Positions 25,952 to 62,311 of a stretch of 64,000 nucleotides of DNA are shown one piece after another. The notes below the pieces were generated by a model. The model worked only from the letters and a program-made list of their open reading frames with translations. It made no database searches and was not told the origin of the DNA. A program made the translations under genes and the position numbers. Location: assembly GCA_963716225.1 (NCBI GenBank), contig OY970299.1, forward strand, positions 777,397 to 841,396. The letters run 5' to 3'. Positions within the stretch are counted from its first letter, which is position 1. Every line of letters begins with the position of its first letter. This DNA comes from an uncultured Verrucomicrobiae bacterium. GTDB taxonomy: Bacteria > Acidobacteriota > Terriglobia > Terriglobales > Acidobacteriaceae.

Positions 25952-26033
25952 TCTTCAACTACATTCGCTAGGCCTCAACTACATTCGCTAGGCCTCAACT
26001 ACATCCCCTAGCCTTCAACTACATTCGCTAGCC
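25931..26033 (+). repeat. Five tandem 20-bp repeats, consensus GYCTTCAACTACATTCGCTA
   Basis: Units start at 25931, 25951, 25971, 25991 and 26011. Confidence 0.95.
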
Positions 26034-26664: not shown

Positions 26665-26744
26665 TCGCCCATTCTATCGATCGCGTTTCACCCGGCTGCG
26701 ATACCCTGTTCACGCCATCGCAGACCCGCCCACAGGAGCAGCTC

Positions 26745-27971: not shown

Positions 27972-28033
27972 ATCGGCATTCATCGCATCCCGATTGCTGC
28001 TTCACACTCGCTCACGCGTGCTATCCTCCCCGC

Positions 28034-28828
28034 GTGCCCACCACCCTCGAAGTTTCGGGCCAAACCTCGCGCACTACATCCAGCCGCCACTCGCTGCTCG
28101 TGCGCATCACTCATTGGCTGACCTTCCTCGCCTGTATCGCGCTTCTCCTCACCGGCATCGAGATCCTCATCTCGCACCCGCGCTTCTACTGGGGCGAAAC
28201 CGGAAACGTGAACACGCCCGCACTGTTCTCCTTCCACATCCCCTCCTCGCGAGGCTCCGTGCCAACCGGCTACGGCTACGTCCTTCCGGATCAGAACGGC
28301 TGGAGCCGCTATCTGCATTTCGAAGCCGCCTGGCTGCTCGTCATCACCGGCGCTGTTTATCTCATCTATCTGGTCGCCACTGGCCACCTCCGCCGCAACT
28401 TGTTCCCCACGCGCGAGCAGCGCTCACTTAGCGCCTACACCAGTCGCATCGGCCACTACCTGCGCGGCGCGCGGCCCGATCCAGCCGAGCTCCACACCTA
28501 CAACGTCCTGCAGCGCAGTTCCTATGTGGCCGTCATTTTCGTTCTCTTCCCGCTCATGATCTGGACCGGCCTCGCAATGTCGCCCGCATTCACAGCCGCG
28601 TTCCCCTTCACATCATCTCTGCTCGGCGGCCGCCAGTCCGCGCGCACCATTCATCTGTTTCTCACCTTCGCGCTCGTTCTCTTCGTCATCGTTCATGTCG
28701 CCATGGTGGCGCTCACCGGCTTCCGCGCTCGCATGCGCGCCATCACTCTCGGAACATCTCAGCCCTCTGGAAACGTCACCGGATCGGAAGCGCATCTCGA
28801 TGACGCTCCGGTGAAGGTGCTCCCATGA
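28034..28828 (+). CDS. Cytochrome b/b6 domain membrane protein (Ni/Fe-hydrogenase cyt b-like)
   Basis: RITHW, LHF, YNVLQR, WTGL, ARTIH, IVH heme-ligand histidines. Confidence 0.8.
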   Translation: MPTTLEVSGQTSRTTSSRHSLLVRITHWLTFLACIALLLTGIEILISHPRFYWGETGNVNTPALFSFHIPSSRGSVPTGYGYVLPDQNGWSRYLHFEAAWLLVITGAVYLIYLVATGHLRRNLFPTREQRSLSAYTSRIGHYLRGARPDPAELHTYNVLQRSSYVAVIFVLFPLMIWTGLAMSPAFTAAFPFTSSLLGGRQSARTIHLFLTFALVLFVIVHVAMVALTGFRARMRAITLGTSQPSGNVTGSEAHLDDAPVKVLP

Positions 28829-29580
28829 ACGCCCTCACCCGCCGCAAGCTCCTCACCACCGGCACCGCAGCCCTCGCGGGCGCCACCGGGCTCGCGACCG
28901 CCGCACGCCTCGCTGAAAAGTACGGCCTCATCGCTCCCGATCACGGCAGCCTCTATGGCGCTGGCGAGACCCTCACCTACGCGTGCCAGCGCATCCTCAC
29001 CCAGCACCGCCCCATGCGGGAGTTTCCGCGCAGCATGATCTCCACGCCGTTCGTCAGCCCTTATGGGAAACTGCCGCCCGCCTTCGCCGCCTCACAGTCC
29101 AACAACTTTGCCGACTGGCGTCTCACCGTCGACGGCCTCGTCACTCACCCGCTCTCGCTCTCCGTCGCAGACCTTCGCGCGCTCGCCACACGCAGCCAGA
29201 TCACCGAGATCGCCTGCGAAGAGGGCTGGTCCTACATCGCCGAGTGGATTGGCACGCCGCTCTCGCTCGTCCTGCGCGAAGCCGGCATCAAGCCCGAAGC
29301 TCGTTACGTCGCCTACTTCGGCATTCAGGATGGGCTGTGGGACAGCCTCGACCTGCCCGAAGCGAATCACCCCGGCACCCTGCTCACGTGGGGCATGAAT
29401 GGCGGCGACCTGCCCATTGACTACGGCGCGCCGTTGCGGCTTCGCGTTCCGCGCCAGATCGGCTACAAGAGCCTGAAGTTCCTCACTCGCATCACCGTCA
29501 CCGACTCTCTCAAGCACGTCGGCAAAGGCCTGGGTTCGTCGAACGCCGACGACGGCTACGCCTGGTACGCGGGCATCTAG
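28825..29580 (+). CDS. MsrP/YedY-like molybdopterin oxidoreductase (sulfite oxidase family)
   Basis: RRKLL Tat-like signal, CEEGWS, YGAPLRLRVP, GYKSLK motifs. Confidence 0.85.
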   Translation: MNALTRRKLLTTGTAALAGATGLATAARLAEKYGLIAPDHGSLYGAGETLTYACQRILTQHRPMREFPRSMISTPFVSPYGKLPPAFAASQSNNFADWRLTVDGLVTHPLSLSVADLRALATRSQITEIACEEGWSYIAEWIGTPLSLVLREAGIKPEARYVAYFGIQDGLWDSLDLPEANHPGTLLTWGMNGGDLPIDYGAPLRLRVPRQIGYKSLKFLTRITVTDSLKHVGKGLGSSNADDGYAWYAGI

Positions 29581-29598
29581 TCTGACCAACCGCGCGCT

Positions 29599-30282
29599 TC
29601 ACAGCGCCACACGCAACCGTCTCCACAACTCGCGTCTGCCATCCAACGTCATCCGCACAGCGCGTGTGCTCTTCGAGGGCACAATCCAGCGCAGCTCAAC
29701 AAATCTTCTGTACATCGCGACACCCGCCGCGCCGGCCACATGCGGCCGCCGCTCCGTCCAGTCGATGCACTGTCGCGCAATCTTCGCATCCGCAGTCTCG
29801 GCGCGTGGCACAGCAACACCGATCTCCTGAAACCACTCACGGCCTCGCTCCGTCACGGCGAACGCTCTTTGAGCCGCCGGCAGCAACAGCCCATTTGCCT
29901 GCAGAGCATCGGCAATCTCCACTCCCACCCATCCCGCAAGGTGCGCATAACACGTACGCGCGTGCTCGATCGTGCCCGCCGCGGGCATCTGTCGCCGCTC
30001 CTTTGGCCGCGCCCCGCTCGAGAGCACCATCAACGCTTCCACGGCGGCTGCGACGTCCGTGCTCGCCAGCCGGTAGTAGCGGTTCCGTCCCTGCCGCTCG
30101 ACACGCAGAAATCGTCCTTCCACGAACCTCGCCAGATGGCCGCTCGCTGTCTGAGCAGACACATTGGCCGCGCGTGCAAGCTCACCTGCCGGCAGCGCGC
30201 GCCCATGCATCAACTCCAGCAGCATCGCCGCCCTCGCTGGTTCAGCAATCAGGTTTGCCGCCACGGCCAATCCATCATCCAT
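29599..30282 (-). CDS. ArsR-family transcriptional regulator with C-terminal extension
   Basis: AGELARAANVSAQTASGHL, QGRNRYYRL, RTCYAHLAG, CIDWTERRPH motifs. Confidence 0.85.
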   Translation of the reverse strand: MDDGLAVAANLIAEPARAAMLLELMHGRALPAGELARAANVSAQTASGHLARFVEGRFLRVERQGRNRYYRLASTDVAAAVEALMVLSSGARPKERRQMPAAGTIEHARTCYAHLAGWVGVEIADALQANGLLLPAAQRAFAVTERGREWFQEIGVAVPRAETADAKIARQCIDWTERRPHVAGAAGVAMYRRFVELRWIVPSKSTRAVRMTLDGRRELWRRLRVAL

Positions 30283-30312
30283 GCCAAACAGTATCGTCTC
30301 TTTTTCACATGA

Positions 30313-30336
30313 ATACTTCGGGCTGTGCCGAACTAT
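30313..30336. promoter_or_regulatory. Candidate operator of the ArsR-type regulator
   Basis: ATACTTCG-N8-CGAACTAT inverted repeat (7/8 match) in the divergent intergenic gap. Confidence 0.5.
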
Positions 30337-30377
30337 CTTCGCCACACTTCAGTGTCTACTTCCTGCAGGAGAACTCC

Positions 30378-30704
30378 ATGTACACGCTGTTCCTGCGCTA
30401 CACGCTTGACCCCAACAAGCTCGCCGACTGGAAGGCTTACGTCCAAGCCGAGATCGCCCCCATCGCCGAAGCCGGCGGCAAATCCATCGCCTACTTCGCG
30501 CCTACCGACTTCGCCGGTGACACCGCCGAAGCCATCGCAACCATCGAGGTCGGTACCATGGCCGACTACGAGACCTACCGCGCCAGGCTCGCCGAAATCC
30601 CGAAGCATAAGGAGAACGCCGCAAAGCTGCAGGCGTCCGGCGTCATCCGCTCGATTTACCGAGCCATCCTCCAGCGCGTCGATCCCGCACAGGCCGCCGG
30701 ATGA
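30378..30704 (+). CDS. NIPSNAP-like small protein
   Basis: RYTLDPNK...YFAP...ADYETYR pattern; divergent from the ArsR-type gene. Confidence 0.7.
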   Translation: MYTLFLRYTLDPNKLADWKAYVQAEIAPIAEAGGKSIAYFAPTDFAGDTAEAIATIEVGTMADYETYRARLAEIPKHKENAAKLQASGVIRSIYRAILQRVDPAQAAG

Positions 30705-30818
30705 TTCCGGTGTTTCCGCCCGGGCACATCAAAACTCGCCGCACGTTCCGTTCGCATGATCACAGCGCCGTGTCTTGCCGTCATCGACGCGTCATTTTTA
30801 TCTGTTAGCTTCACTGCT

Positions 30819-31994
30819 GTGAGCAGCGCATATCGATCCAAACTGTTTCTCTTCTTCGCTCTGCTCGGCCTCACACTTTCAATCGCGGGCGTATCCGAAA
30901 TCGCCGCGCAGAAGCTCGTACACTACGCCACACCCCCGGACGCGCATCGCGGCGAGGTCGTCTACAAGCAAGGCTGCATCGCCTGTCATGGCGCGGAAGG
31001 CAAAGGCGCGGACCCCGAATCCACCGTCTTCATCCGTCCCGGCACGTTCCCCGACTTCACTCGCTGCGACCAGACCACGTCCGAGCCCGACTCCGCCTAC
31101 AAAGCCGTCATCCTCCACGGCGGCCACGGCCTCGGCTTCTCGCAGATCATGCCCGCCTTCGGCGACCAGCTCACCGGCCAGCAGATCGACGACGTGATCG
31201 CTTACCTCCGCAGTTTCTGTCACAACGTGCACCACTATCCCGCCGGCGAGCTCAACCTGCCGCGTGCGCTCGTCACTGAGAAAGCCTTCCCTGAAGACGA
31301 GTTCGTTGTCTCCACAACCGCCGACGCCGCTTCACCCGCCTCCTGGACCACTCACTTTATCCACGAGGAGACCTTCGCCGGCCTGCAGCAGATCGAGATC
31401 GACGTCCCCGTCAACTACGCGGTCAATCCGCAAGCGCTGCCGAACAACAACAACTGGACCGCCGGTTTCGGCGACATCACCATCGGGCTCAAGCGCGTTC
31501 TCTTCTCCAACTTCCGTGCCGGTTCCATCGTCAGCGCGCAGGCTGGCTTCCTTTTTCCCACTGGCGACAGCAATCGCGGCTTCGGCGCAGGCACCGCCAC
31601 CTTCGAACCCTTCCTCGCCTACGATCAGCTTCTCGGGGAACGCAACTTCGTCCAGACGCAAATTGGCGGCGACATCACCTTCGATCCCACGAAATCGCCG
31701 CGCAGCCTCTTCTTCAACATCGCCGCGGGTCGCTCCATGGCGCCCGATCACGGCCTCGGCCGCCTCTACACACCCATGCTCGAGGTCACCGGCACGCACG
31801 AGTACACCGCGGGCGCCGGCACCGACCTCAACCTCGTCCCGGAGATGCAGGTCACCGTCTCCAAACGACAGCACATCCGCATAGGCGCCGGCGTCAGCGC
31901 TCCCGTCACCAGCACCTCCGATCGCAAACCGCAAATCATCTTCTACGTACTGTGGGACTGGGCTGAAGGAAACTTCTGGAACGGATGGCGATGA
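30819..31994 (+). CDS. Monoheme cytochrome c fused to a probable outer-membrane beta-barrel
   Basis: Signal peptide, CIACH, distal IMPAF; C-terminal amphipathic strands with GFGDITIGLK and FPTGD. Confidence 0.7.
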   Translation: MSSAYRSKLFLFFALLGLTLSIAGVSEIAAQKLVHYATPPDAHRGEVVYKQGCIACHGAEGKGADPESTVFIRPGTFPDFTRCDQTTSEPDSAYKAVILHGGHGLGFSQIMPAFGDQLTGQQIDDVIAYLRSFCHNVHHYPAGELNLPRALVTEKAFPEDEFVVSTTADAASPASWTTHFIHEETFAGLQQIEIDVPVNYAVNPQALPNNNNWTAGFGDITIGLKRVLFSNFRAGSIVSAQAGFLFPTGDSNRGFGAGTATFEPFLAYDQLLGERNFVQTQIGGDITFDPTKSPRSLFFNIAAGRSMAPDHGLGRLYTPMLEVTGTHEYTAGAGTDLNLVPEMQVTVSKRQHIRIGAGVSAPVTSTSDRKPQIIFYVLWDWAEGNFWNGWR

Positions 31995-33706
31995 ACAGAC
32001 CTCTGCTTGCGTGCGCTCTCTTCAGCGGCTCGCTTCTCGCAGCCATCTTCGCGGCGCGGACGCCGCCGCCCGTCTTCGCGCGTCAACAGAGCCAGCACCC
32101 AACCTCCACCGCACAACTGCAGCCCACCGAAGAAAAGCCGCTCATCGCCTTTGCGCCACATCAAGCGACGGCCTTCCACACCTCGGACCGCTGCGTCGCC
32201 TGCCACAACGGCATGACTTCAGCCAAGGGCGACGCCTTCTCCATCGGCTTCGACTGGCAGGCGAGCGTCATGGCCAACGCCGGTCGCGATCCCTACTGGC
32301 AGGGCAGCATTCGCCGCGAGACCATCGACCACCCCGAATCCTCGCAGTTCATCCAGAACGACTGCTCCATCTGCCACATGCCCGCCGTTCGCCTCGCCGA
32401 CCGCGACGCACATCGCGACACCCACGTGTTCGCACGCTTCCCGTTCCAGAAGCTCTCCGGGAAATCCTCGCAGCTCCAGCGCTCCGCACAGGACGGCGTC
32501 ACCTGCTCCGTCTGCCATCAGATCTCCAAAGATAACCTCGGCGATCCGTCGACCTTCAGCGGCAATCTCGTCATGAATCGCGCCGTCGACTTCGACATCC
32601 GTCCCGAGTACGGTCCCTTTGCACCCGACCACGGCCATCAGACGATGATGCATTCCTCGACCGGCGGCTTCCTGCCCGAGGAGGCCGCGCACATTCGCGA
32701 CGCCGCGCTCTGCGCCGGCTGCCACACCCTCATCACCACACCGCTCGGCCCCGGCGGCAAACAGCTCGGCCACTTTCCCGAACAAGTGCCCTACCAGGAA
32801 TGGCAGCACAGCGCCTACAACAACAAGCGCACCTGCCAGGACTGCCACATGCCGCCCGTTAACGGCGCCACTCCCATCACCGCGCTCTATGGCCAACTTC
32901 GCGACGGCGCGCGCCACCACTACTTCATCGGCGGCAACTTTTTTCTGCAGTCACTCCTGGATGAACACCGCGATGATCTCAAGACTGTCGCGCGCAGCGA
33001 AGACCTCGAAGCGGCCGCCAGGCGCACCGCGGAATTCCTCGGCACGCAATCCGCGCGCGTCACCATCGAGCACCCTGTCCTCTCCGCCGGCAAACTCTCC
33101 TTCACCGTGTTCACCGAAAACCTCACCGGCCACAAGCTCCCCACCGCTTACCCGTCACGACGCGCGTGGCTGCACGTCACCGTCACGGACTCCGGCGGCC
33201 GCACCGTCTTTGAATCCGGCGCGCTCCGCCCCGACGGTTCCATCATCGGCAACGCGAATGATGACGACAAAACCCGCTTCGAGCCTCACTTTCGCGAGAT
33301 CACACGCCCCGAGCAAGTTGAAATCTACGAGCCTATCCTCGGCGACATGAACGGCCACGTCACCACCGGCCTGCTGAACACCGTCCGCTACCTGAAGGAC
33401 AACCGCATCCTTCCCGCGGGCTTCGACAAGTCCACCGCCACACCGGACATCGCCGTCTACGGCAACGCCGCCGACGACCCCGACTTCACGGCCGGCGGCA
33501 GCCGCATCCGCTACATCGTCCCGACCAACAGCGCGACCGGCCCGCTGCACATTAAGATCGAGCTGCTCTATCAACCCATCGGCTTCCGCTGGGCCCACAA
33601 CCTGGAGCCCTACAAGGCCGCCGAGCCGCAGCGCATCCTCCACTACTACCAGACCGCCTCGACCCGCACGGCCACGACCCTCGCCAGTACCGAAGCGACA
33701 AGGTGA
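31991..33706 (+). CDS. Five-heme c-type cytochrome (c554-like)
   Basis: CVACH, CSICH, CSVCH, CAGCH, CQDCH; signal peptide; ATGA overlap with upstream gene. Confidence 0.9.
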   Translation: MNRPLLACALFSGSLLAAIFAARTPPPVFARQQSQHPTSTAQLQPTEEKPLIAFAPHQATAFHTSDRCVACHNGMTSAKGDAFSIGFDWQASVMANAGRDPYWQGSIRRETIDHPESSQFIQNDCSICHMPAVRLADRDAHRDTHVFARFPFQKLSGKSSQLQRSAQDGVTCSVCHQISKDNLGDPSTFSGNLVMNRAVDFDIRPEYGPFAPDHGHQTMMHSSTGGFLPEEAAHIRDAALCAGCHTLITTPLGPGGKQLGHFPEQVPYQEWQHSAYNNKRTCQDCHMPPVNGATPITALYGQLRDGARHHYFIGGNFFLQSLLDEHRDDLKTVARSEDLEAAARRTAEFLGTQSARVTIEHPVLSAGKLSFTVFTENLTGHKLPTAYPSRRAWLHVTVTDSGGRTVFESGALRPDGSIIGNANDDDKTRFEPHFREITRPEQVEIYEPILGDMNGHVTTGLLNTVRYLKDNRILPAGFDKSTATPDIAVYGNAADDPDFTAGGSRIRYIVPTNSATGPLHIKIELLYQPIGFRWAHNLEPYKAAEPQRILHYYQTASTRTATTLASTEATR

Positions 33707-33724
33707 TCCCCGCGCAGCCGCGCG

Positions 33725-34855
33725 TCAGCGCACCATCACCGGGTGCGCCACTACAGCGTTATACAAATATCCGCCATCGTTCCACGGCACGGTATCAGGT
33801 TGCGTCCGCCCGCGATCGTCAGTCGCTCGCACGCGTACGTCGTGCCTGCCTGGCGTCGGCTCCCACGCAAAGCTCCACCTTCTCCAGCAGCCCTGGATGT
33901 TGACTTCGTCCAGCGCCGCGCGTCTCCATTCCCCGCCATCGATGCTGTACATGACCTCGGCCACCTTCGCCTCACCGGCAAACGATCGCCCCCGAATCAC
34001 CTTCACGCGACTCGACAGCTCCGCCGGCCAATCCAGGTCCAGCACACTCATCACCGGCATCTCCGTGATCGCAGGTCCCGGCGCCAAACCCTCCCTCGCA
34101 TACTCCGGCCCCACCATCGTGTACAGCTCCGTGTTGAACCGCGAATAAAGCCGCTCTTCCGCAACTTCGATTGCGCTCACCCACTTGATATTCGCCGCGC
34201 CCGTCCACCCACTCACCAGCACTCGCACCGGATATCCGTGATCCATCGGCAGCGTCTCGCCATTCATCTTCAACACCAGCAGAGTGTCGTCGCGCATCGC
34301 CTTCTCGGCGGGCATCGGACGCCGTCCTCGCTCTTCATCCAGTCCGATCGGCATCACATCGCGCACACTCTGCTTCACTCCAGCCTTGGCCAGCACATCG
34401 CGTAACCGTACGCCCGTCCACTCAGCGCAGCCCATCGCCCCCATGCCCCATTGCCCACCGTCGGCCTTCTTCCCAAACTGCTCCTTGAAAAATCGCCGCC
34501 CATTCCCCGCGCATTCGATCGTCCGGATCAGCGTCACCTGCGGCATCGCCTCGAGCTCTTCGTAGGTCAGTTCCACCGGCCTCTCAACTCCGCTTCCATA
34601 AATCCTCAGCCGATAGCTCGCCATCTCAACCATCGGCGTAGAACTGTGACTCCGCACATAGAAGCGTTCGTTTGGCGTAATCAGGCTCTCGAACGCGCTC
34701 GGACGCGTCTCAAACTCCGTCCCACTTCCTATATCCCGGAATATCCCCTTCGGCACCGGCTTGAACACGCGCCTTCTGCGCCTGGCAGCGACCACCACAC
34801 CGATCGTGGCAACACTTGCACCCAACGCAGCCCAGAAAGTTCTCCTGCCCACCAA
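33725..34855 (-). CDS. Tat-exported sulfite oxidase-family molybdoenzyme (SorA/SoxC-like)
   Basis: RRTFW signal, FYVRSH, ECAGNGR, EWTGV, MNGETLPMDHGYPVR, IKW, C-terminal dimerisation domain; AGGAGG RBS before TTG at 34855. Confidence 0.88.
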   Translation of the reverse strand: MVGRRTFWAALGASVATIGVVVAARRRRRVFKPVPKGIFRDIGSGTEFETRPSAFESLITPNERFYVRSHSSTPMVEMASYRLRIYGSGVERPVELTYEELEAMPQVTLIRTIECAGNGRRFFKEQFGKKADGGQWGMGAMGCAEWTGVRLRDVLAKAGVKQSVRDVMPIGLDEERGRRPMPAEKAMRDDTLLVLKMNGETLPMDHGYPVRVLVSGWTGAANIKWVSAIEVAEERLYSRFNTELYTMVGPEYAREGLAPGPAITEMPVMSVLDLDWPAELSSRVKVIRGRSFAGEAKVAEVMYSIDGGEWRRAALDEVNIQGCWRRWSFAWEPTPGRHDVRVRATDDRGRTQPDTVPWNDGGYLYNAVVAHPVMVR

Positions 34856-35097
34856 CCCTCCTCCTGCCCACCGATCCAACACCCTAGCACGCGCTTCGGT
34901 GCATCGACCTGAAGTCGCCGCTCCGCCAGAGAATCACGCCACTTCGAGCGCCTCGCTCAAATACCGCGCTGTCTTGCTCCCCGCGCAGACGCAACTCGCT
35001 CCGGCACACCTTGCGCGACAATCCAACACCCGCCTCCCGCACGCTCCTCACGATATTGCTTCCCCGCGTACTCCGCGCAGTGCTACCCTTCCGCGCG

Positions 35098-36657
35098 ATG
35101 AGAACATTCGCTCTTCGAACAATTTCTGCCGCCGGACTCCTGCTCGCGCTCTCCGCTTATTCGCAGACCAGCCCTTCTCGCATGCCGGCCATCGCGCACG
35201 TCGATCCGCGCTTCCAGTCCTACAACATCGAGATGGTTGAAGTGATCGGCGGCCGCTTTTGGAAGCCGTACTCCGCCACCTCCAGCGCGCAGCCTGCCAT
35301 CACCATGAATGGAAACACTGCGACGCTGAGTTCCTCACTGTTCGAGCAGCGAAAGCCCGTCGATCTCTCCGACCCGCGCCTGCGCAAGCTCGCCGCCGCG
35401 CTCGGGCCAGCGTATGTGCGCGTCTCCGGCAGTTGGGCCAACAGCCTCTACTTCCAGAACTCCGACGCGCCCGCGCCCACTCAGCCGCCGCCCGATTTCG
35501 GAGGCACGCTCACTCGCGCCGAATGGAAAGGTGTCATCGACTTCGTACACGCGGTCGATGGCAAGCTCGTCACCTCCTTCGCTGTCTCGAAGGGCACACG
35601 CGACGCCTCCGGCGCCTGGACCACGACGCAAGCCCAGGCCTTCCTCAATGCGACGCAAGAGTTCGGCGGGTCCATCGCCGCCACCGAGTTCATCAACGAA
35701 CCAACCATCCCCTTCGCCGCGGGTCTGCCTCCTGACTACAACGGCGAGGCCTTCGGCCGCGACTACGCCACCTTTCGCACATGGCTCCGCAAAGCCTCTC
35801 CGCATACCATTCTTCTCGGCCCCAGCTCCACCGCCGAAGGCGGCCCGCCATCGCGCTTGAAACTTCTTCCTTCCACCGAGCTCTTGCAGGGCATGGGTCC
35901 GAATTCCATAGACGCGTTCAGCTATCACTTCTACGGAGCGATCTCGCAACGCTGCGCAGCAGGCCTCGGCGCTTCGGCCGGCACCTCACCCGATGCCGCG
36001 CTCACCGCCGACTGGCTTGACCGGACCGCTGCCACGGAAGCCTTCTATGCCAACCTGCGCGACAAGTATGAACCAGGCAAGCCCATCTGGGTCACCGAAA
36101 CAGGCCAGGCTGCATGCGGAGGCGATCGCTGGGCCTCAACCTTCCTCGATAGCTTCCGCTACCTCGACCAGCTCGGCCGTCTCGCGCAGAAAGACGTCCA
36201 AGTCGTCATGCACAACACACTCGACGCCAGCGACTACGGCCTTATCGACGAGCGCACCCTGACACCTCGCCCCAACTACTGGGCCGCCGTCCTCTGGCAT
36301 CGCACCATGGGTACAACCGTGCTTGACCCTGGCCCTGCACCCACACCCGACTTGCGCCTCTACGCTCAGTGCGCGCCGGACAAACCCGGCGGCGTCACTC
36401 TCCTCGCGCTCAACCTGAGCCGCACCGCAGCCGCGCATCTGCATCTCGACAAACCCTCCGCGCGCTACACGCTCACCGCCCCTGAACTCGAGTCCCACGA
36501 GGCGCTGCTCAACAACCAGCCGCTCACGCTCACCGCCTCCGGCGACTTGCCCCCCATCGACAGCACGCCGCAACCCGCCGGAGACGCCACCCTCGCGCCC
36601 GCAAGCATCACCTTCTTCGTCGTCCCCTCGGCCGGCAACAAATCCTGCATACGCTGA
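35098..36657 (+). CDS. Secreted glycoside hydrolase family 79 (beta-glucuronidase/heparanase-like)
   Basis: LGPAYVRVSG, NEP acid/base, WVTETG nucleophile region, PNYW. Confidence 0.8.
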   Translation: MRTFALRTISAAGLLLALSAYSQTSPSRMPAIAHVDPRFQSYNIEMVEVIGGRFWKPYSATSSAQPAITMNGNTATLSSSLFEQRKPVDLSDPRLRKLAAALGPAYVRVSGSWANSLYFQNSDAPAPTQPPPDFGGTLTRAEWKGVIDFVHAVDGKLVTSFAVSKGTRDASGAWTTTQAQAFLNATQEFGGSIAATEFINEPTIPFAAGLPPDYNGEAFGRDYATFRTWLRKASPHTILLGPSSTAEGGPPSRLKLLPSTELLQGMGPNSIDAFSYHFYGAISQRCAAGLGASAGTSPDAALTADWLDRTAATEAFYANLRDKYEPGKPIWVTETGQAACGGDRWASTFLDSFRYLDQLGRLAQKDVQVVMHNTLDASDYGLIDERTLTPRPNYWAAVLWHRTMGTTVLDPGPAPTPDLRLYAQCAPDKPGGVTLLALNLSRTAAAHLHLDKPSARYTLTAPELESHEALLNNQPLTLTASGDLPPIDSTPQPAGDATLAPASITFFVVPSAGNKSCIR

Positions 36658-36842
36658 AACGCCCGCACCCGTATGCATCGCTAAGATGCTTCCGATCCAC
36701 CCGCAGCAACGCCCATCCGCGTAAGCCCTGCTGCCACAACTTGAAGTTGCGGCACCGGCATTTCGCTCGACAGCCGCGTCAGCCGTTGCTACAGTGGCAG
36801 TGACCTCCCGAGATTTACACGTTCTGGGCCTCTGCCGCCAAG

Positions 36843-39295
36843 GTGGACCATTTGTTTCGCCACACGCTTAGCCGGCTTCCGCTCGTTCTTTTCCTCACAT
36901 CGTTCATCTCCTTGGGCCTGCTCGGCTGCGGCGGCTCCTCCTCAGGTTCAGGCGGAACGCAGTCTCAACCTGACTTCTCGCTCGTTGTCTCGCCGGCGAG
37001 CCTGGCGCTCAGCGCCGGCACTTCCGACAGCAGTGGCTTCATTCGGGTCGTGCCTTTAAACGGCTTCACCGGTACCGTCACACTCTCTGTCTCCGGCCTT
37101 CCTTCCGGTGTCGGTGCGTCGCTCCCTTTGGTCACCATCAACACATCCGGAAGCACGAACATCATCCTGAGCGCGTCGCCGACCGCGCCTCTCGTTTCAA
37201 ACCAGACCATGACGGTGCAGGCCGTTGGCGGCAACATCACCCACACCGGAACTATTTCGCTTACCGTCACCAGCCCGCAGCCGCCGGATTTCACGATCTC
37301 CGCCCCCAGCACCTTCAACATCTATCCCGGCTTCATGACAGCACTCAACTACACCACGGGCAGTGTCGCCGGCTACAACACGCCGATCAACGTCACCCTC
37401 TCCGGGCTTCCGCCCGGCATCACCGACAACGTCTCATCAGTGTCCAACTTGCCCGGCAACCCGACGATTTCACCCTCTACGTCGCCGCGAACGCCAGCAC
37501 CTCGGCGACCGTCACCCTAACCGCCACCAGCGGCACCATCACCCACGTCGTTCAAACCACACTCAACGTCATCACCACGCCGGACTTCGGCTTCGGCGTC
37601 ATTGGGAACGGAATCTATCCGTTTAACGGCAGCGTTCTTGACCAGCAAATCTTCGACTTCGTGCCTTACAACGGCTTCAACGCACCCGTTACCGTCACCA
37701 TCGGCCCTATACCCGACGACATCACCATCTCCCCCACCACCTTCACCATCCCCTCACCGACCCACTCGCCAAACCTCACCATCACAGTTCCTGAGGACCT
37801 CCCACCTCGGCCCGTCAGCATTCCCGTTCAAGCGACCAGCGGCACACTCTCTCACTCGATCACGTGGACCATCAATGTGCTGCTGAACGGCCCGGTCCTC
37901 AACCTGGAGCACTTCGCGGGCGACCCGCACGCAGGCTCATTTACCACTGTCTACGTTGACGTCACTACGAACGCCGGCAGCAACACCATCGGCACGTCCG
38001 CCCTGTCTGTTATCAGCGCACCCGCGGGAATAACCGTCTCCCCCCTGCTGACGACCTTCACAGGCCAGGGAGCGCAGCTCTTCAACATCCAGGCCACACC
38101 CAATGCTCAAAACGGAAACATCACCTTCCAGGACACATGGAACGGCGTCACCGTAACTGCGACACTACCCATCACCGTTCTCGCTGCAACTTCCAACAGC
38201 AGGACATCCACTCACACACATGGCGCTTACATCCGTTCCAGCTCCACGGCCGACTACCGCGCCTTCCCGCTCGTCAGCTGGTCCCTCTACGACGCCGGCA
38301 CCGCCCGCTTCTTCGCCGCCGACTACGCCACCGGCCGCCTCAACGTCTACGATTCCGTCGCCGAAAAGCAGATTGCATCTCTCGTCATCCCCGGCGCCTT
38401 TGGCATCGGCCAGTCCAGCGGCGACCATACCATCTACGTCGGAACTCTCTCCGGCGACATCTACCTCGTCGATCCCGTCGCGCTGACCATCACCCAGCGC
38501 ATCCCGTCATTCAGCATCGGCTCTTCCGGCTTCGCCGCCAATGCCGTCTTCCCGCGACAGGACGGGACCCTGCTCCTGGAAAGCTACTCTCACGTACCCG
38601 GCTTTCCCTCGGCGGACGGCTCCAATCACTTTGCTCTCTGGAATCCCGCGACGAACGCACTCCTCACCGTTCCCGGCTGTAACACTGGCTCCGGCCCCGC
38701 ACGTACTCTGTTCGGTATCCCCACCAGCAACGGCGCACGCCTGCTCACCCTCGCCGGGAATCCCGCGTCTGCCGCCACTCTTCTCTGCTCCATCGACCTC
38801 ACCACCGGCAACTTCTCTAACCTCACCGCCGACTCTGAGGCTGCCATCAACACGCTCGCCGTATGTCCTGACGGCAATACCGTAGCCGGTTTCGACCGCG
38901 CAAATATCTGGGTGGTCGACGCCGCCACCCTCGCCGTCAAAAACAAATTCCCTGTTCCCGCCTCCGGTTCACTCTCCGGAGACGCCAGCATGCTCATCAC
39001 GCCCGATAACCAGACCGTCTACATTACCGGCGCTGATAAGAAGAACCTGGTTCTAGCCTTCAACCTATCCACGGGCCAACTCATCGGCTCGATGCCCGCT
39101 ATTCCGGTGGACACAGACGGCAGTGATATCCCCTCAGCTCCCATTCCCCAGGGTCTCAGTTCCAACGGCCTCCTCGGAGGGGTCCTGGAGCAGGGCTTCG
39201 CCTTCATTGACACAACGGCCATCAATCCGCCCCCGACCCCCACAACGTCCTCCCAACGGAGTTCGGCCGCCGCCTCTTCCTCGCCGCGCAACTAG
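36843..39295 (+). CDS. Large lipoprotein with Ig-like repeats and beta-propeller-like region, frameshift near 37460
   Basis: Lipobox LLGC; three PDF...(F/Y)xxxxxxxxxxxP repeats; S/T-rich beta-strands. Confidence 0.7.
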
Positions 39296-39382
39296 CCCGC
39301 TCAACCCTCCTGACGCCTTGCTGTCAGCAGCTTCCATTGCTCCCCTCGTGTCTCGCATCTCGCGTCTCGTATCTTTAAAGCA

Positions 39383-41380
39383 ATGGACTTCCAGCTCCAC
39401 ACGGACTACAAGCCCCAGGGCGACCAACCCACCGCCATCCGCGACCTCGTCTCCGGCACCAACGCCGGCGAAAAGGACCAGGTCCTCCTCGGCGTCACGG
39501 GCTCCGGCAAGACCTTCACCATGGCCAAGGTCATCGCCGAGCTCAACCGCCCCGCGCTCATCCTCGCCCACAACAAAACTCTCGCCGCCCAGCTCTATCA
39601 CGAGTTCAAGCAGTTCTTCCCTACCAACGCCGTCGAGTACTTCGTCTCCTACTACGACTACTACCAGCCCGAAGCCTACATTCCCTCCGGCGACCTCTAC
39701 ATCGAAAAAGAAGCCACCATCAACGACGAGCTCGACAAGCTGCGCCTCTCCGCCACGCGCTCGCTCTTCGAACGCCGCGACGTCATCATCGTCTCCTCCG
39801 TCTCCTGCATCTATGGCCTCGGCTCGCCCGAAGCCTACTACGGCATGCTCCTCCTCCTCGAAAAAGGCCAGAAGCTCAAGCGCGAAGACATCACCCGCCG
39901 CCTCGTCGAAATCCTCTACGAGCGCAACGACGTCGACTTCCGCCGCGGCACCTTCCGCGTCCGCGGCGACATCATCGAAGTCTTCCCCACCTACGACGAA
40001 AACGCGTTCCGCATCGAGCTCTTCGGCGACGAGATCGACTCACTCTCGCAAATCGACCCACTCTTCGGCACCGTCAAGCAGCGCTACTCCCGCCTGCCCA
40101 TCTACCCCAAGTCCCACTACGTCGTCCAGCCCGAGCGCAAATCCACCGCCATCAACTCCATCCTCGCCGAGCTCACCGACTGGGAAGCCCAGCTCGAAAA
40201 AGAAGGCCGCCTGGTCGAATCCCAGCGCATTCATCAGCGAACTAGATTCGACTTAGAAATGATCAAGTCCGTCGGCTACTGCCACGGCATCGAAAACTAC
40301 TCGCGCCACTTCTCCGGCCGTCTCCCCGGCGAGCCCCCACCCACACTCCTCGACTACTTCCCGCGCGACTTCCTCACCTTCATCGACGAGTCCCACGTCA
40401 CCGTCCCGCAACTCCACGGCATGTGGCACGGCGACCGCTCGCGCAAACAAAACCTCGTCGACTACGGATTCCGCCTCCCCTCCGCCATGGACAACCGCCC
40501 GCTCCGTTTCGAAGAGTTCGAGAGCCGCGCCGGCCAGACCATCTACGTCTCCGCCACCCCCGGACCCTACGAGCTCACCAAGTCCGCCGGCGTCGTCGTC
40601 GAACAAATCATCCGCCCCACCGGCCTCGTCGACCCGCAAGTCGAAATCCGCCCCATCAAAGGCCAGATCGACGACCTCCTCGCCGAGATCCGCGACCGCG
40701 CCGCCATCAACCAGCGCGTCCTCGTCACCACACTGACAAAGCGCATGGCCGAAGACCTCGCCAACTACTACTCCGAGGTCGGCGTCCGCTGCCGCTACAT
40801 GCACTCCGAAATCGAAACCCTCGAGCGCATCCGCCTCCTCCGCGACCTCCGCCGCGGCGAGTACGACGTGCTCATCGGCATCAACCTCCTCCGCGAAGGC
40901 CTCGACCTCCCCGAGGTCTCACTCGTCGCCATCCTCGATGCCGACAAAGAAGGCTTCCTCCGCTCCCAGGGCTCCTTGATCCAGACCATCGGCCGCGCCG
41001 CACGCCACCTCGAAGGCCGCGCCATCCTCTACGCCGACAAGATGACCGACTCCATGCGCCGCGCCATCGACGAAACAGATCGTCGCCGCGAAAAACAAGA
41101 GCGCTACAACACCGAGAACGGAATCGAACCCCCCACCATCATCCGCGCCATCAACGACTCCCTCGCCAGCATTCTCAAGGCCGACTACGCCGACCTCACC
41201 GATGAACTGTCCGCCACCCCCGAAGAACTCGACTTCAACACCCAGGCCGAACTGGACAGTTACATCGCCAAACTAGAAACCGAAATGCGCGAGTCCGCCA
41301 AAAAGTTCGAATTCGAACGCGCCGCCACCCTCCGCGACACGATCAAAGAACTCCGCACCAAAGAATTCTTGTTCAGCTGA
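39383..41380 (+). CDS. uvrB: Excinuclease ABC subunit B
   Basis: [49 protein letters not shown]-terminal UVR domain. Confidence 0.98.
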
Positions 41381-41498
41381 CACTCATCCTCAGCGTGGGC
41401 TCCCAAAACGTGGGTAGCCGAGTCGAGCACGAGCATGGAACGTTAAAGCCCATCGGCGCGTACGTATCAAGTGCACCCATTCACGCCGAGGGATTTCA

Positions 41499-42668
41499 AT
41501 GCGCCTTTGGAAGCTACTCACCGTCCTCGTCCTGTGCCTTCAGCCGGCGATCGTTTTCAGTCAGACGCCACCCGACCCTCCTGCCTTTCAGGCAAAGCCC
41601 GGTCCCTTCCCCGTTGGATTGCGAGTCGTCCACCAATATGACCGTAGCCGCTCCTTCGCCTCCTCCACACAAGGCCGGCCGCTGCAAACGCTCGTCTGGT
41701 ACCCCGCCCAGGCCAGCGGCCTTCGACGCATGAGGGTCAAGGATTACGTTGGGCTCACGAGGACCGAGACTAGCTTTCAAACACCGGACGAAAACGCGCC
41801 ACACCAGGGCTTGGCCGGCGCCGTGACCGCGCATGCCGAAGATCCCATGCTGGCCACCATGGGCGCGCCTCCTACTGCGGAACGATTTCCCGTCGTCATC
41901 TATTCCCCCAGCTTCTCCGGAGTCTCCTGGGAGAACGCCGACCTCTGCGAGTACCTGGCCAGCCATGGCTACGTCGTGCTGACCGTTCCCGCGATGGGCG
42001 CCAACGGCCGCGAATCGACTCATGACCTTCAGGGAACCGAGGCCCAGGCGAAGGACATCACCTTCCTGATCAACTATGCCGAATCCCTGCCCGACACCAA
42101 CATGACCAAGGTCGCGACGGTCGGCTTCAGTTGGGGAGGTCTGGCCAACCTCTTCGCCGCCTCCCAGGACCACCGCATCCGCGCGCTCGTTTCGCTGGAC
42201 GGCAGCGAACGATACTTCCCCGGGCTCGTCAAGTCCTCAGGCCACGTCGATCCCGAGCAGATGAACCTTCCGCTCCTGTACTTCGAAGAGGGAGACCAGT
42301 CACTGGAAGTACAGGATGATCTGAACACCCGCTTCCACAGCGAAGGTCCGAACGTCCTCAATCGGTGGGAGCACGGCGACCTCATCACCGCACACATGCT
42401 GGGGATGTTCCATCCATCCTTCTACTCAATGTGCTTCCGTTTCGAGCAGCTCTGGCGCGACGAGGTGCCCCGTCTGCAGGTCGCCGACTACGACCGCGAC
42501 GATGTGTTCCTCCAGTTCTCCTGGATGATGCGCTACACCGCCGCCTTCCTGGATGCCACGCTCAAACAAGACGCCGAAGCCCGCAAATTCCTCGACGCAA
42601 CGCCGAAAGCCAACGGCATCCCCGCCCACATGATGTCCGTCAAGCTGAGACCTGCAACCGCCCAATAA
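41499..42668 (+). CDS. Secreted alpha/beta hydrolase (dienelactone hydrolase/PAF-AH-like)
   Basis: Signal peptide, LVWYPA, YLASHGY, GFSWGG nucleophile elbow, SLDG. Confidence 0.8.
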   Translation: MRLWKLLTVLVLCLQPAIVFSQTPPDPPAFQAKPGPFPVGLRVVHQYDRSRSFASSTQGRPLQTLVWYPAQASGLRRMRVKDYVGLTRTETSFQTPDENAPHQGLAGAVTAHAEDPMLATMGAPPTAERFPVVIYSPSFSGVSWENADLCEYLASHGYVVLTVPAMGANGRESTHDLQGTEAQAKDITFLINYAESLPDTNMTKVATVGFSWGGLANLFAASQDHRIRALVSLDGSERYFPGLVKSSGHVDPEQMNLPLLYFEEGDQSLEVQDDLNTRFHSEGPNVLNRWEHGDLITAHMLGMFHPSFYSMCFRFEQLWRDEVPRLQVADYDRDDVFLQFSWMMRYTAAFLDATLKQDAEARKFLDATPKANGIPAHMMSVKLRPATAQ

Positions 42669-42690
42669 CCGCCCAGACGGGGCGACGTGA

Positions 42691-42934
42691 CCCCACCATC
42701 CGCGCCATCACCGACTCCCTCGCCCATCCTCAAAGCCGACTATGCCGACCCCGCCGATGAACTGTCCGCCACCGCCGAAGAACTCAACTTCAATACCCAA
42801 GCCGAACTGGACACCTACATCGCCAAACTAGAAACCGAAATGCGCGAATCCGCCAAAAAATCGAATTCGAAAAGGCGGCAACACGCAGAGACACGATCAA
42901 GGAGCTCAGGACCAAAGAGTTTCTATTTTCATAA
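42691..42934 (+). pseudogene. Degenerate duplicate of the uvrB 3' end (41131-41380)
   Basis: Direct alignment; small deletions break the frame; ends with [14 protein letters not shown]-stop. Confidence 0.92.
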
Positions 42935-43007
42935 ACTCTCGAAGTAGAGGCTCGGATAGAGATCGACACCTGATCACCCTGCTACACTTTGGCCACCGAG
43001 AGCACCT

Positions 43008-44081
43008 ATGAGTAAGTTCCTGAGGAAATACTGGTTCGTTATCGTCGCGCTTGCGTTCACATTTGCCGCACGTCCTGCACATGGCACGAAGTGGGCTTCG
43101 GCAAGCTTTCACACGAAGCAGCCAATAGATCAAGTGTTCGACCCCACCGCGAAACTGATTGCAAGCAAGGAATGGTACGTCGGAACAAGATGGCACATTC
43201 AAGCTGTTGACCCAACGCTGAAAGCAATTCGGGCGACCACCGTTTCGTTTGGTGAGCAGTGGGGCGAAATCTATGTGTGGATGAAGCCGGAAGGAACCGG
43301 CACATGCATTCAGACTGTGATGACATTGCGTTCCGACGCGCATCTGCATCCTGCGGACTATGCTGCGAGGTTTGGGAAGGCGCTCAAAAAGCTATTCTCG
43401 GACCTCACCTACGATATCGAACGCGACAAAACTCCGACCGACTTTTACTTCGGCAGTCCTGCGGTTTCCATACCGCTGACTGCTTCTGCCGTCGCTAGTC
43501 AGCAGACCTCAGTGTCAGTCACGCAGAGCGTATCTACGACTCAGGTCGTACAGATCGGGTCGACAAACAACAACTTTTTTTCTGCACTCGCGGATTGGGC
43601 GGTCGAGCGAGAGCAACTAGCTAAGCAGAGGGACGAGGAGCTTGATGCAGCGAAAGCGAGCGCAGCAGCAAAACAAGTTCTCATAAACGCTAATCCTTTG
43701 ATGACGCAATACCTGGCTACAGTCGGCAAGGAATCCGCTGAACAGTTTCCAGTCGCTGCTCAGGCAATTAACGAGTCGCGCGACACTGCATATAAAGAAC
43801 TGACCAATCCGTTTCAGCGGGCTAAGTTCATTCAAATTACGAACGGTTACATGCGAACATTCGAACAACAGATGGGCGATCACGCGAAAGAACAAGCCAC
43901 GGCGGATCAGGAAACCAGTCGACAGGAAGTCACAGACAACCTGCATCGGGCACTCGATTACTGGTACGCAAACGGGAAAGACTGGACAAAGATACCGCCA
44001 GAAGTGTGGAACAAACTTTCGGAACGAGACAAAGGGCGATTGAAGGACGGAATCGACCCTGAAATTGGTCGACTAAGGTAG
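43008..44081 (+). CDS. Hypothetical secreted protein, lower GC
   Basis: Signal peptide; 357-aa ORF; sampled lines 48-53% GC. Confidence 0.75.
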   Translation: MSKFLRKYWFVIVALAFTFAARPAHGTKWASASFHTKQPIDQVFDPTAKLIASKEWYVGTRWHIQAVDPTLKAIRATTVSFGEQWGEIYVWMKPEGTGTCIQTVMTLRSDAHLHPADYAARFGKALKKLFSDLTYDIERDKTPTDFYFGSPAVSIPLTASAVASQQTSVSVTQSVSTTQVVQIGSTNNNFFSALADWAVEREQLAKQRDEELDAAKASAAAKQVLINANPLMTQYLATVGKESAEQFPVAAQAINESRDTAYKELTNPFQRAKFIQITNGYMRTFEQQMGDHAKEQATADQETSRQEVTDNLHRALDYWYANGKDWTKIPPEVWNKLSERDKGRLKDGIDPEIGRLR

Positions 44082-44723
44082 GTACCCTCCAGCCGATTTT
44101 TTTACGTTGCGGCGCCCGACGGCCCACCCATTCGTTCCTGCCTCCCCCAAATAGAATTTATAGAGATCGTCGGAACTAGGATGAGCATCCGCCGCCGCAT
44201 CCTCCTTCACCTCGAGCGGACGCATCTGCTCGATCAGCCAGGAACAGTTGGCCATGGATGCGGGACTCGTCTTCTGGTCGTCCTTAACCACTGGCTCTAG
44301 ATCGGCATACGTGTTCAAGAGCCAATACCCCATCTCGTTCCAAATGTCGGAGACATCGAGATAACCCCTACGAGCAAGAAGACCCACGTGATCACATGTG
44401 TTCAACACATCCCAAACCTGCTCTGGCGGATCGTCGACGTCTAATCGCTTTAGTTCTCCACGCTGGATATTTATACGAGCTTTGGCCAGCCCTTTCAGAG
44501 AGGTTGACAGTTCCTGATCGAACCGCGCAGATTCCTCGACCAGATGCTGAATCCTCAGCGCATCTCGCGACTGCCTGAGCTGCGCTTGCGCGTCTTCTCT
44601 AGCTTCCTTGATCTGTTTATCGATGAAGTAGCCGGAAACCACGACGCCAACAAACGTCACGAGAACTAATAGCGCCGTAGACCAGGCGAGTACCCGCTCC
44701 GATCCCATCTTGTCGGCCATCAT
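44073..44723 (-). CDS. Hypothetical single-TM protein (DUF4760-like)
   Basis: N-terminal TM, coiled coil, VLNTCDHVGLLARRGYLD segment. Confidence 0.6.
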   Translation of the reverse strand: MMADKMGSERVLAWSTALLVLVTFVGVVVSGYFIDKQIKEAREDAQAQLRQSRDALRIQHLVEESARFDQELSTSLKGLAKARINIQRGELKRLDVDDPPEQVWDVLNTCDHVGLLARRGYLDVSDIWNEMGYWLLNTYADLEPVVKDDQKTSPASMANCSWLIEQMRPLEVKEDAAADAHPSSDDLYKFYLGEAGTNGWAVGRRNVKKSAGGYLP

Positions 44724-45000
44724 GTGTTCTCCCGAGAAGGGAGTGTACAGCAGCACCCTGGCAACTTCGCCGCGCGCAGCGCTTCCGCTGGGCGGGTGGC
44801 CCACCCGTAGTTTTCTCTCGAACGACCTCTAATCTCCGGCTACCCCATTCGTACGCGCAGCGGACGGTGAGGACGAGGATGTCTACCTCATCCACCAAGA
44901 GCCAGGCCCGGAAACCGCCGGAAGCCGTGGATTACCAAAGATTTATGGGGGCTTAGGCAAGTGCCGTGTAGATTGACTCCACGTCATCAGGGGGTCTTGT

Positions 45001-45829: not shown

Positions 45830-45861
45830 CTTCCGCTCTGCCCTGAGCGCAGCCGAAGGGC
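45830..45861 (+). repeat. 32-bp direct repeat, copy 1 (REP-like)
   Basis: CTTCCGCTCTGCCCTGAGCGCAGCCGAAGGGC, identical at 47600-47631. Confidence 0.9.
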
Positions 45862-45992
45862 GCAACCGCAGCCCGAAGGCCGAAGCGCGCGACTTGCCTT
45901 CCTCTACCTCGGCAACGATCGATCCTCAGCCCGAAAGCCCACTCATCCCGTAAATCAATGGACCCCCGCGACTTGACAAAACCCTCTGCCCA

Positions 45993-47599: not shown

Positions 47600-47631
47600 C
47601 TTCCGCTCTGCCCTGAGCGCAGCCGAAGGGC
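47600..47631 (+). repeat. 32-bp direct repeat, copy 2
   Basis: Identical to 45830-45861. Confidence 0.9.
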
Positions 47632-47716
47632 CGTCGTGAAGCCCAACAGGCGTAACGACCGAATCGCCTTCCTCAAACCGCAGCAAAGGCCGACCCATCG
47701 CCTCCCAAAGCCGACC

Positions 47717-61958: not shown

Positions 61959-62311
61959 AGTCGTTCCGATCGTTTCTAGTTCCGCTGAGAGTCTGTGAGC
62001 ACGCCGGGTTCCATTCGTATTCAGATGGCGCAGAAATTGCGCAGGAACGCGAGCGCCCCAACTCGTGCAGCGGGTTTTTATTGTTAATTGTTTGCATACC
62101 AGTGAAACCATACTGCGTCGGGTGTGTGACCTTTTTTGCCTACAAAAGTGCAAAGTTCTTCCCTTTCACAGCCAGTCCGGCTACACTTGACGCCGTCTCA
62201 GGGCGTCGGTGGTCAAAACCGCTGCAGCCCTGCGGTTCACGCGGATATCTGCTCGCGGGACGCGAGCATGCTGTTGCAGTTTGCGGCATCAGAACCGCCG
62301 GAGTTGCTGGA

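Follow-up and report, generated by a model that had tools for sequence, protein, structure and literature searches.

A decayed second copy of the uvrB 3' end behind a hydrolase gene in an uncultured Acidobacteriaceae bacterium, most likely a scar of gene-tail replacement

We analyzed a 64,000-nucleotide (nt) stretch of DNA (hereafter the window) from an uncultured Acidobacteriaceae bacterium (contig OY970299.1 of assembly GCA_963716225.1, positions 777,397 to 841,396 of the forward strand). In this window the 3' end of uvrB occurs twice, once in an intact uvrB and once behind the single hydrolase gene that follows it. The second copy is a pseudogene. It is most likely an old uvrB end that was displaced by DNA bringing its own replacement end, a scar rather than a device. 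For the locus as a whole we favor, with moderate confidence, a history in which incoming DNA, anchored by its homology to uvrB, replaced the uvrB tail in two stacked events, after which gene conversion took place.

The repeat of the uvrB end had been described in an initial annotation of the window and was confirmed by local BLAST, with positions 42693-42921 matching 41136-41367 at 86% identity over 232 nt (E 6e-74). The end of uvrB (last 250 nt; ~245 nt in the copy) was the sole gene-tail duplication in the 64 kb when a repeat search was performed, and no third copy of the uvrB tail was found in the window by BLAST. We also found no tRNA genes in the 64 kb that could serve as alternative attachment (att) sites. 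As annotated, the repeat encloses one hydrolase gene, which is a single open reading frame (ORF; 41499-42668). The copy starts (at 42691) 22 bases past the hydrolase stop codon and has a TAA stop codon of its own at 42932-42934, behind a last sense codon that ends at 42931; at the joint, the hydrolase 3' untranslated region reads ...GACGTGACC and is followed directly by CCACCATC of the copy. The 12-nt palindrome and its remnant in the copy are located where they had been placed (Table 1), and the small deletions in the copy are present as well. Relative to uvrB, 3 nt (ATC) are missing near 42696-42700, 2 nt between 42724 and 42725 and 1 nt between 42860 and 42861. The last 14 residues are the same in both copies while 8 of the 14 codons are different. 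The statement that these codons differ mostly toward AT-rich forms held only in part for the eight codons, of which four lose GC, three gain it (AAA to AAG, and GAA to GAG twice) and one is neutral, but it did hold for the whole tail behind the palindrome, where the GC content falls from 56% to 45%.

The copy is a mosaic of two uvrB ancestries. We designated the parts before the palindrome A1 (uvrB) and A2 (copy), and the parts behind it B1 and B2. Copy and uvrB were mismatched at 15 of 179 nt before alignment column 220 and at 18 of 57 nt after it. The best break point was the first base after the palindrome (column 220; Fisher p = 4e-5), and 0 of 500 permutations were as extreme, indicating that divergence rises past the palindrome, as had been noted by eye, and is not uniform along the copy. 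When A2 was compared to A1, the proportions of differing synonymous (pS) and non-synonymous (pN) sites were 0.24 and 0.05, respectively. Between B2 and B1, 13.2 of 14.3 synonymous sites (pS 0.92) and 7.8 of 48.7 non-synonymous sites were different, and 19 of 21 residues were the same. Since pN/pS was ~0.2 both before and after the palindrome, the differences in A2 and B2 arose in working genes and not by decay in place. Moreover, since the synonymous sites of B2 are saturated while its residues are kept, B2 derives from a uvrB that was functional in a distant lineage. B2 uses AAG, GAG, AGG and GCG where the resident gene has AAA, GAA, CGC and GCC. We compared the sequences to 80 uvrB loci of relatives and found that A2 is nearer to A1 (90.6% identity) than to any of the 80 (83% at most), while the distance between B2 and B1 equals that between the tails of different genera. 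A tail in the style of B2 (…AGGACNAAAGAGTTTCTATT…) is the working uvrB tail in the loci L242 and L016, and it is native in L258, an Acidobacteriaceae genome without the habit of C-ending codons. Two stacked events, as had been proposed, are the simplest reading of a mosaic copy with a pS of 0.24 before the palindrome, a pS of 0.92 behind it and a foreign codon style after it. The palindrome itself, TTCGAATTCGAA, is also present in uvrB of L001, L002, L003, L007, L010, L016, L242 and others, while TTTGAGTTTGAG or a similar form stands at this place in lineages whose codon usage is different. Two styles of uvrB tail are in circulation: the working tail of the window (41318-41380) is of the C-ending style and the remnant (42871-42934) of the other, and in L242 the arrangement is reversed (1041-1128 versus 1917-1959).

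The age of the duplication became apparent from a second occurrence. A search with the hydrolase protein identified the metagenome-assembled genome (MAG) MFD09603.bin.2.50 (95% amino acid [aa] identity), whose locus we refer to as L081. Positions 39383-42936 of the window align to 3887-7440 of L081 at 92.9% identity, with uvrB, hydrolase and copy in the same order, and the L081 block sits on a 1.22-Mb contig of an independent assembly. Homology runs from the start codon of uvrB to 2 nt past the stop of the copy, and the flanks on both sides are unrelated. At the place where the copy joins the hydrolase 3' untranslated region, L081 has GGCGGGTGGCC, which resembles a repetitive extragenic palindromic (REP) sequence. 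Because L081 carries the same block, mis-assembly, which had been named as a concern for the duplication, is excluded, and the duplication is older than the split between the window and L081. The divergence between the two was 5.8% for uvrB, 3.8% for the whole hydrolase gene, 18-19% for the two spacers and 21.7% for the copy. The value for the copy, set against that of the spacers, indicates that the copy evolves as non-coding DNA. In a four-sequence alignment, the branches leading to the two copies had 21 and 16 private changes and the uvrB branches had 2 each. The L081 copy is in frame and has no start codon. In the window, the uvrB-like reading is split over three frames because of the deletions, and the sole ORF over the copy (42687-42947) reads uvrB residues only between the 2-nt and the 1-nt deletions and has no Pfam match. 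We therefore rejected the possibility that the copy is a small functional ORF, as there is neither a start- and frame-consistent ORF nor a Pfam family. A scan for RNA families over the copy gave no Rfam match in 38.5-47.5 kb, save one chance-level match elsewhere. Behind the copy, the DNA specific to the window and that specific to L081 had no homology at the protein level; the first ~90 nt may be distantly related, but this similarity is unreliable. As a separate observation, the 3' two-thirds of the hydrolase gene (41983-42582) are only ~1% diverged from L081, compared to 5.8% for uvrB and 18% for the spacers. This low divergence suggests a recent exchange between the lineages of the window and L081.

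The divergence within the two copies is patchy, and the patches differ. Private divergent patches were found at alignment columns 219-276 in the window copy and at columns 108-141 in the L081 copy (13 of 31 positions mismatched and a 3-nt gap). The L081 copy is uvrB-like after the palindrome and shows no break there. Columns 241-243 read ACG in both copies of the uvrB end in the window and CAA in both copies in L081, and three further sites are concerted in this way. ACG/CAA is thus a multi-base variant that is common within a genome and different between genomes, as is expected from gene conversion. The very end of both pseudo-copies is TTT TCR TAR, as opposed to TTC AGC TGA in both uvrB genes. 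The simplest account would be that the ancestral copy was divergent in several places and was overwritten by the neighboring uvrB in different tracts in each lineage.

The DNA downstream of uvrB had been proposed to be a site of repeated gain, and our comparison with the relatives bore this out, with variable cargo and with remnants in three further lineages. An nhmmer profile of the uvrB tail, run on 87 uvrB loci, detected downstream remnants in the window, L081, L056, L001 and L005, and inspection added L242-244. These three other Acidobacteriaceae lineages have an intact uvrB, an insert of 0.8-1.6 kb and a remnant of the old tail, the cargos being unrelated. In most relatives the second copy is absent and the site is "empty". 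A total of 83 ORFs located 3' of uvrB in the relatives matched 81 different Pfam families. For L056 (Terracidiphilus), collinearity of the remnant at 11879-11998 with the uvrB tail and the response-regulator/ccmF flank of ~15 relatives indicates that this remnant is the old native end. Upstream of it lie an intact uvrB and 1.5 kb of cargo, which contains a DUF4160/DUF2442 pair and an ORF also found behind uvrB in L028, L057 and L033. In L001 and L005, a small GIY-YIG gene and repeats precede a 60-nt remnant that starts 3-6 nt past the palindromic 12-mer coding for FEFE. In L242, uvrB is followed by a REP hairpin, an IS200-like Y1 transposase gene, more REP hairpins, a remnant with deletions (1917-1959) and an 88%-identical copy of orf43008, the ORF that lies behind the copy in the window. 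In the working uvrB of L242, C-ending codons give way to the other style directly behind FEFE+EKA, and the L242 remnant is C-ending, the mirror image of the window; this remnant starts ~9-15 nt past the 12-mer. Relative to the 12-mer, the left edges of the remnants are thus located at about -175 nt (window and L081), about -68 nt (L056) and +3 to +15 nt (L001/L005 and L242). The GIY-YIG genes, of ~107 aa, are located directly behind uvrB in L005 (12411-12734) and L001 (12159-12494), and one is also present in L251 (4371-4697), beside an orf43008 homologue.

We then considered the genes on either side of the copy. Homologues of orf43008 (77-90% aa identity) were found in at least six neighborhoods, 3 of 6 of which are linked to uvrB. 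In L253, the homologue starts 11 nt past the stop codon of an intact uvrB, and in L242, as in the window, a uvrB remnant precedes it. It is located behind an alpha-amylase gene in L245, between Uma2 and ccmF in L248 and beside a GIY-YIG gene in L251. At the nucleotide level, homology to the orf43008 cassette starts at 42940 (L248) or ~42978 (L242 and L245). Since the three uvrB-linked settings fit an old uvrB-orf43008 neighborhood, the copy appears to be still joined to its old neighbor. The data fit the view that uvrB-orf43008 would be an old neighborhood in the clade and the copy the old uvrB end. The orf43008 gene is of lower GC content and behaves as a single-gene cassette, with REP-like hairpins at its borders in several loci. 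On the other hand, a homologue of the hydrolase follows uvrB only in L081, and the next-best homologues (71% identity and lower) are in other contexts. Wider searches for the hydrolase block gave a best match of 60% in JGI metagenomes and only L081 in a set of 5.8 billion proteins; the 71% homologue is not beside uvrB. The hydrolase as a native neighbor of uvrB was rejected, as it was behind uvrB in 0 of the 80 relatives.

Table 1. Features of the uvrB locus, with positions in the window.
Feature	Position	Strand	Remarks
uvrB, intact, 665 aa	39383-41380	+	Pfam UvrB_inter, UvrB, Helicase_C, ResIII, UVR
Segment A1, uvrB end repeated downstream (linker and start of UVR domain)	41131-41305	+	matches A2 at 154/170 positions
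12-nt palindrome TTCGAATTCGAA	41306-41317		codes FEFE (Phe-Glu-Phe-Glu) of the conserved KKFEFE motif
Segment B1, working uvrB tail	41318-41380	+	C-ending codons like the remainder of the gene; GC 56%
Spacer between uvrB and hydrolase, 118 nt	41381-41498		18% diverged from L081, taken as near-neutral yardstick
Cargo, dienelactone-hydrolase / alpha-beta-hydrolase family gene, 389 aa	41499-42668	+	Pfam DLH 6e-10, Peptidase_S15, Abhydrolase_1
Segment A2, first part of pseudo-copy	42691-42860	+	90.6% identical to A1; frame broken by deletions
Palindrome remnant TCGAATTCGA in copy	42861-42870		divergence shift directly after
Segment B2, foreign-style tail of copy, ends in stop	42871-42934	+	48/62 nt match to B1; GC 45%
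orf43008 cassette, 357-aa ORF (43008-44081) and upstream region	42940-44082	+	native follower of uvrB end in related lineages
DUF4760 membrane-protein gene, end of window-specific lower-GC stretch	44073-44804	-	Pfam DUF4760; not in L081 or the uvrB loci of 80 relatives
REP-like hairpin stretch (GGCGGGTGGCCCACCCG...)	44791-44882		similarity to L081 resumes here

UvrB proteins of Granulicella, Bryocella and Acidobacteriaceae MAGs share 89-90% identity with that of the window, which places the window in the Acidobacteriaceae. The N-terminus of the hydrolase reads by eye as a signal peptide, and the enzyme is hence predicted to be secreted.

From the anatomy of the locus, its age, the decay and mosaicism of the copy and the recurrence in other lineages, we infer the order of events and the recombination pathway as follows. 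First, a uvrB with C-ending codons in an ancestor would have lost its last ~21 codons to a tail of foreign codon usage, joined just after the FEFE 12-mer. The lower-GC DNA downstream (orf43008) probably arrived with the foreign tail. This is precisely the arrangement that L242 and L016 have today. Second, before the window and L081 separated, a segment from a closer relative that contained at least 250 nt of the uvrB end and the hydrolase gene would have entered. Its left side may have been incorporated by homologous recombination within uvrB and its right side may have been attached illegitimately at a point 250 nt ahead of the old stop; alternatively, one cross-over of a circular molecule would have the same outcome, namely an intact uvrB, the hydrolase gene and then the old chimeric tail. 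Third, the old tail would have decayed while conversion from the neighboring uvrB overwrote patches of it, halting where the similarity breaks down, at the old junction past the palindrome. Because of selection for a working uvrB, only inserts with a full uvrB end would survive. In this account the palindrome belongs to the coding sequence and marks the old junction; it is not a proven recombinase site. A homologous anchor is available, as uvrB shares 85-94% nt identity with genus-level relatives over most of its length, and all four insert types begin in or right after uvrB. Homology-facilitated illegitimate recombination (HFIR) is reportedly an established route for such one-sided insertion (de Vries & Wackernagel 2002; Prudhomme et al. 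2002; Meier & Wackernagel 2003; all in the reference list of PMC2884548). The initial idea of stacked events was supported, but its topology was loose, as the foreign-style tail sits on the pseudo-copy and not on the working gene.

Several observations weigh against this account. No donor genome was found, and the left homologous cross-over and the right illegitimate join are inferred only. Sliding-window identity of uvrB to 31 relatives gave no clear switch of nearest neighbor at the 3' end, and the same was true for L056, although the relatives are too distant for this to be a strong test. About four junctions fall within ~15 nt past the palindrome, namely the switch from A2 to B2, the switch of codon style in L242 and L016, and the points at which the L001/L005 and L242 remnants begin. 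Illegitimate joins give no obvious reason for clustering past the palindrome, and directed alternatives therefore stay alive. The block coding for FEFE differs between C-style and other lineages, so that it is a less than ideal homologous anchor. Finally, the concerted pattern is weak beyond ACG/CAA, with 6 concerted sites as compared to 4 sites of the cross type.

The first of the directed alternatives is site-specific integration, in which the uvrB end, with a core at or just past TTCGAATTCGAA, is an attB site and the copies are the attL and attR of stacked, degraded elements whose recombinase was lost or acts in trans. We consider this unlikely, even though direct repeats flank the cargo, the working uvrB stays intact, most relatives have an "empty" site and divergence shifts exactly past the palindrome. 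The starts of the L001/L005 remnants (3-6 nt) and of the L242 remnant (~9-15 nt) past the 12-mer would also agree with it, as would the switch of codon style at the same point in the working uvrB of L242 and L016, and L056, the one lineage without the palindrome (it has TTTGAGTTTGAG), has its remnant edge elsewhere. However, no integrase, transposase or recombinase was revealed when the window's 55 largest ORFs were compared to PHROGs and the larger ORFs in 41-64 kb to Pfam, in agreement with the initial remark that no integrase was visible. None was called beside the analogous inserts in L005, L056 and L081, and in L242 there was only the IS200-like Y1 transposase. Among the 25 best-scoring of the 81 families behind uvrB in relatives we found no integrase, which is a weak negative, and no viral contig matched the uvrB tail. 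In the titles and the parts of abstracts through which we surveyed the literature, uvrB was not found as an integration site. In addition, the four cargos are tiny (0.8-1.6 kb) and have no relation to one another, nor any common terminal sequence at their right ends, and the edges of the remnants vary. A foreign tail on the pseudo-copy and a native tail on the working gene is the reverse of what a single att integration gives, the L081 copy has no break at the palindrome, and the 12-mer is one codon choice for FEFE that is not conserved as DNA across the family. The proposal of an integrase-type element with the palindrome as its att core was thus not upheld.

A broader form of directed exchange is that the last ~20 codons of uvrB and the DNA behind them form a swappable Acidobacteriaceae module whose junction is set by TTCGAATTCGAA through a site-directed process that would insert single-gene cassettes together with a replacement tail. 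A trans-acting recombinase, the small GIY-YIG nuclease or the REP-associated Y1 enzyme could be candidates for such a process, which we regard as doubtful. Breakage at a hot spot appears less probable again; here double-strand breaks would form preferentially at the palindrome, which has overlapping TTCGAA, GAATTC and TTCGAA sites of the restriction type, or a nearby GIY-YIG or Y1 nuclease would cut there, and repair would capture foreign DNA that survives selection only if it brings a uvrB tail. The cluster of junctions just past the palindrome would follow from this, and nucleases are at hand in some loci, with a GIY-YIG gene directly behind uvrB in L001/L005, another beside the orf43008 homologue in L251 and a REP-flanked Y1 transposase between uvrB and the remnant in L242. 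On the other hand, the inserts of the window and L081 have no nuclease gene, a 12-nt palindrome is too short to extrude by itself, and only four or five events are available. We also observed no sign of restriction pressure on these sites, since the window contains 14 GAATTC sites against an expected 10.5 and 21 TTCGAA sites against an expected 17.5, and thus shows no avoidance of either.

A plain local duplication with insertion of the hydrolase gene, in which the copy simply decayed and no foreign uvrB tail was involved, is very improbable. The copy is indeed a pseudogene evolving at a near-neutral rate, and the copies are 1.3 kb apart on the same strand. However, decay cannot saturate synonymous change (13.2 of 14.3 sites) and yet keep 19 of 21 residues. 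It gives no account of the sharp break point and leaves unexplained why the tail has the codon style of working uvrB tails from other lineages. In our view, this alternative is effectively refuted by how pS and pN are distributed in the tail. An assembly artefact, with the second copy being a mis-join of reads from a related strain, can be set aside almost entirely. The genome probably comes from a metagenome or from long reads, and the public runs, examined for mis-joins and for deletion or circle junctions, contain low-coverage scraps of the region, none over the copy, but L081 shows the same order and junctions at 93% identity and analogous remnants occur in four other assemblies.

The arrangement has similarities to several known systems. 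P4-type islands, integrative and conjugative elements, dusA-specific islands and tycheposons leave partial duplications at attL and attR and supply a surrogate gene end. Like these, the uvrB locus has an incoming end that keeps the gene intact, a truncated second copy on the far side, empty sites and stacking; unlike these, no recombinase gene was seen, the 0.8-1.6 kb inserts are unrelated, the edges vary and the foreign-style tail is on the pseudo-copy. With HFIR it would share one side in a conserved gene and another joined without homology, a trapped foreign gene, short duplications or deletions of recipient DNA at the illegitimate end and no need for mobile-element enzymes. HFIR, however, has been described for transformation in the laboratory, in Acinetobacter, Pseudomonas stutzeri and Streptococcus, while in these uncultured Acidobacteriaceae it would be read from scars. 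In tuf genes and pilE/pilS, a working gene and a silent or duplicate copy undergo gene conversion, and the patchy homogenization, the variants shared within a genome and the tracts that stop where similarity drops are as in those genes. In contrast to them, there is no sign that the copy feeds variation into uvrB, and only one clear multi-base tract (ACG/CAA) was found. Intergenic hot spots rich in REP sequences and bacterial interspersed mosaic elements (BIMEs), together with REP-associated Y1 (RAYT) transposases, are another known system. Behind the copy, the cassettes have REP-like hairpins (GGGTGGCCCA...) at their borders, and such hairpins also flank the Y1 transposase in L242, but no REP hairpin was recognizable at the borders of the hydrolase. 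Y1 transposition is not known to duplicate target genes. The type of scar is already known, and the uvrB/hydrolase case is a further example.

A few other features of the region are recorded here. The upstream side of uvrB is also variable, as different DNA is found there in the window, L081 and relatives. In the window, 12.7 kb (26665-39382; a cytochrome/sulfite-oxidase block, a glycosidase and a lipoprotein with Ig repeats) lie between the gene at 26047-26664 and uvrB. The homologue of 26047-26664 adjoins uvrB upstream in L001, L005, L008, L012 and L014, and L081 has another 3.3 kb there (GH10/CBM genes). Direct repeats of 75 nt (45830-45904 and 47600-47674; 77% identical with an identical 32-nt core) bracket a lipocalin and MNT/HepT cassette, and their motif CTGAGCGCAGCCGAAGGGC is found again in L005, within the repeats that follow uvrB. 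At 25930-26031, a 20-nt unit (AGTCTTCAACTACATCCGCT-like) is present in ~5 tandem repeats. A sigma-54 activator (receiver and AAA+; 62209-63712) is split into overlapping ORFs (62209-63078 and 62930-63712) by a frameshift or a sequencing error.

With regard to the organism, nothing in the sequence suggests a change in the repair function of uvrB, the working gene being intact and conserved. The repeat has no present function in the favored account, though it does provide homology through which further exchange, or loss of the hydrolase gene, could take place. If a process directed by the palindrome were at work, it would be a new mechanism, free of an integrase, for loading cassettes behind a core gene. 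If, on the other hand, stacked tail replacement anchored on uvrB is correct, annotators would need to take care not to treat short gene-end fragments as att sites by default. With the core gene as the homologous handle, a soil bacterium would then gain single genes beside a conserved gene and need no mobile-element enzyme to do so. Incoming DNA would have to restore the end of that gene, and the old end would be left as a datable scar that could be used to order gene gains. Such scars would reveal the anchor genes at which accessory genes turn over in the little-studied and mostly uncultured Acidobacteria.

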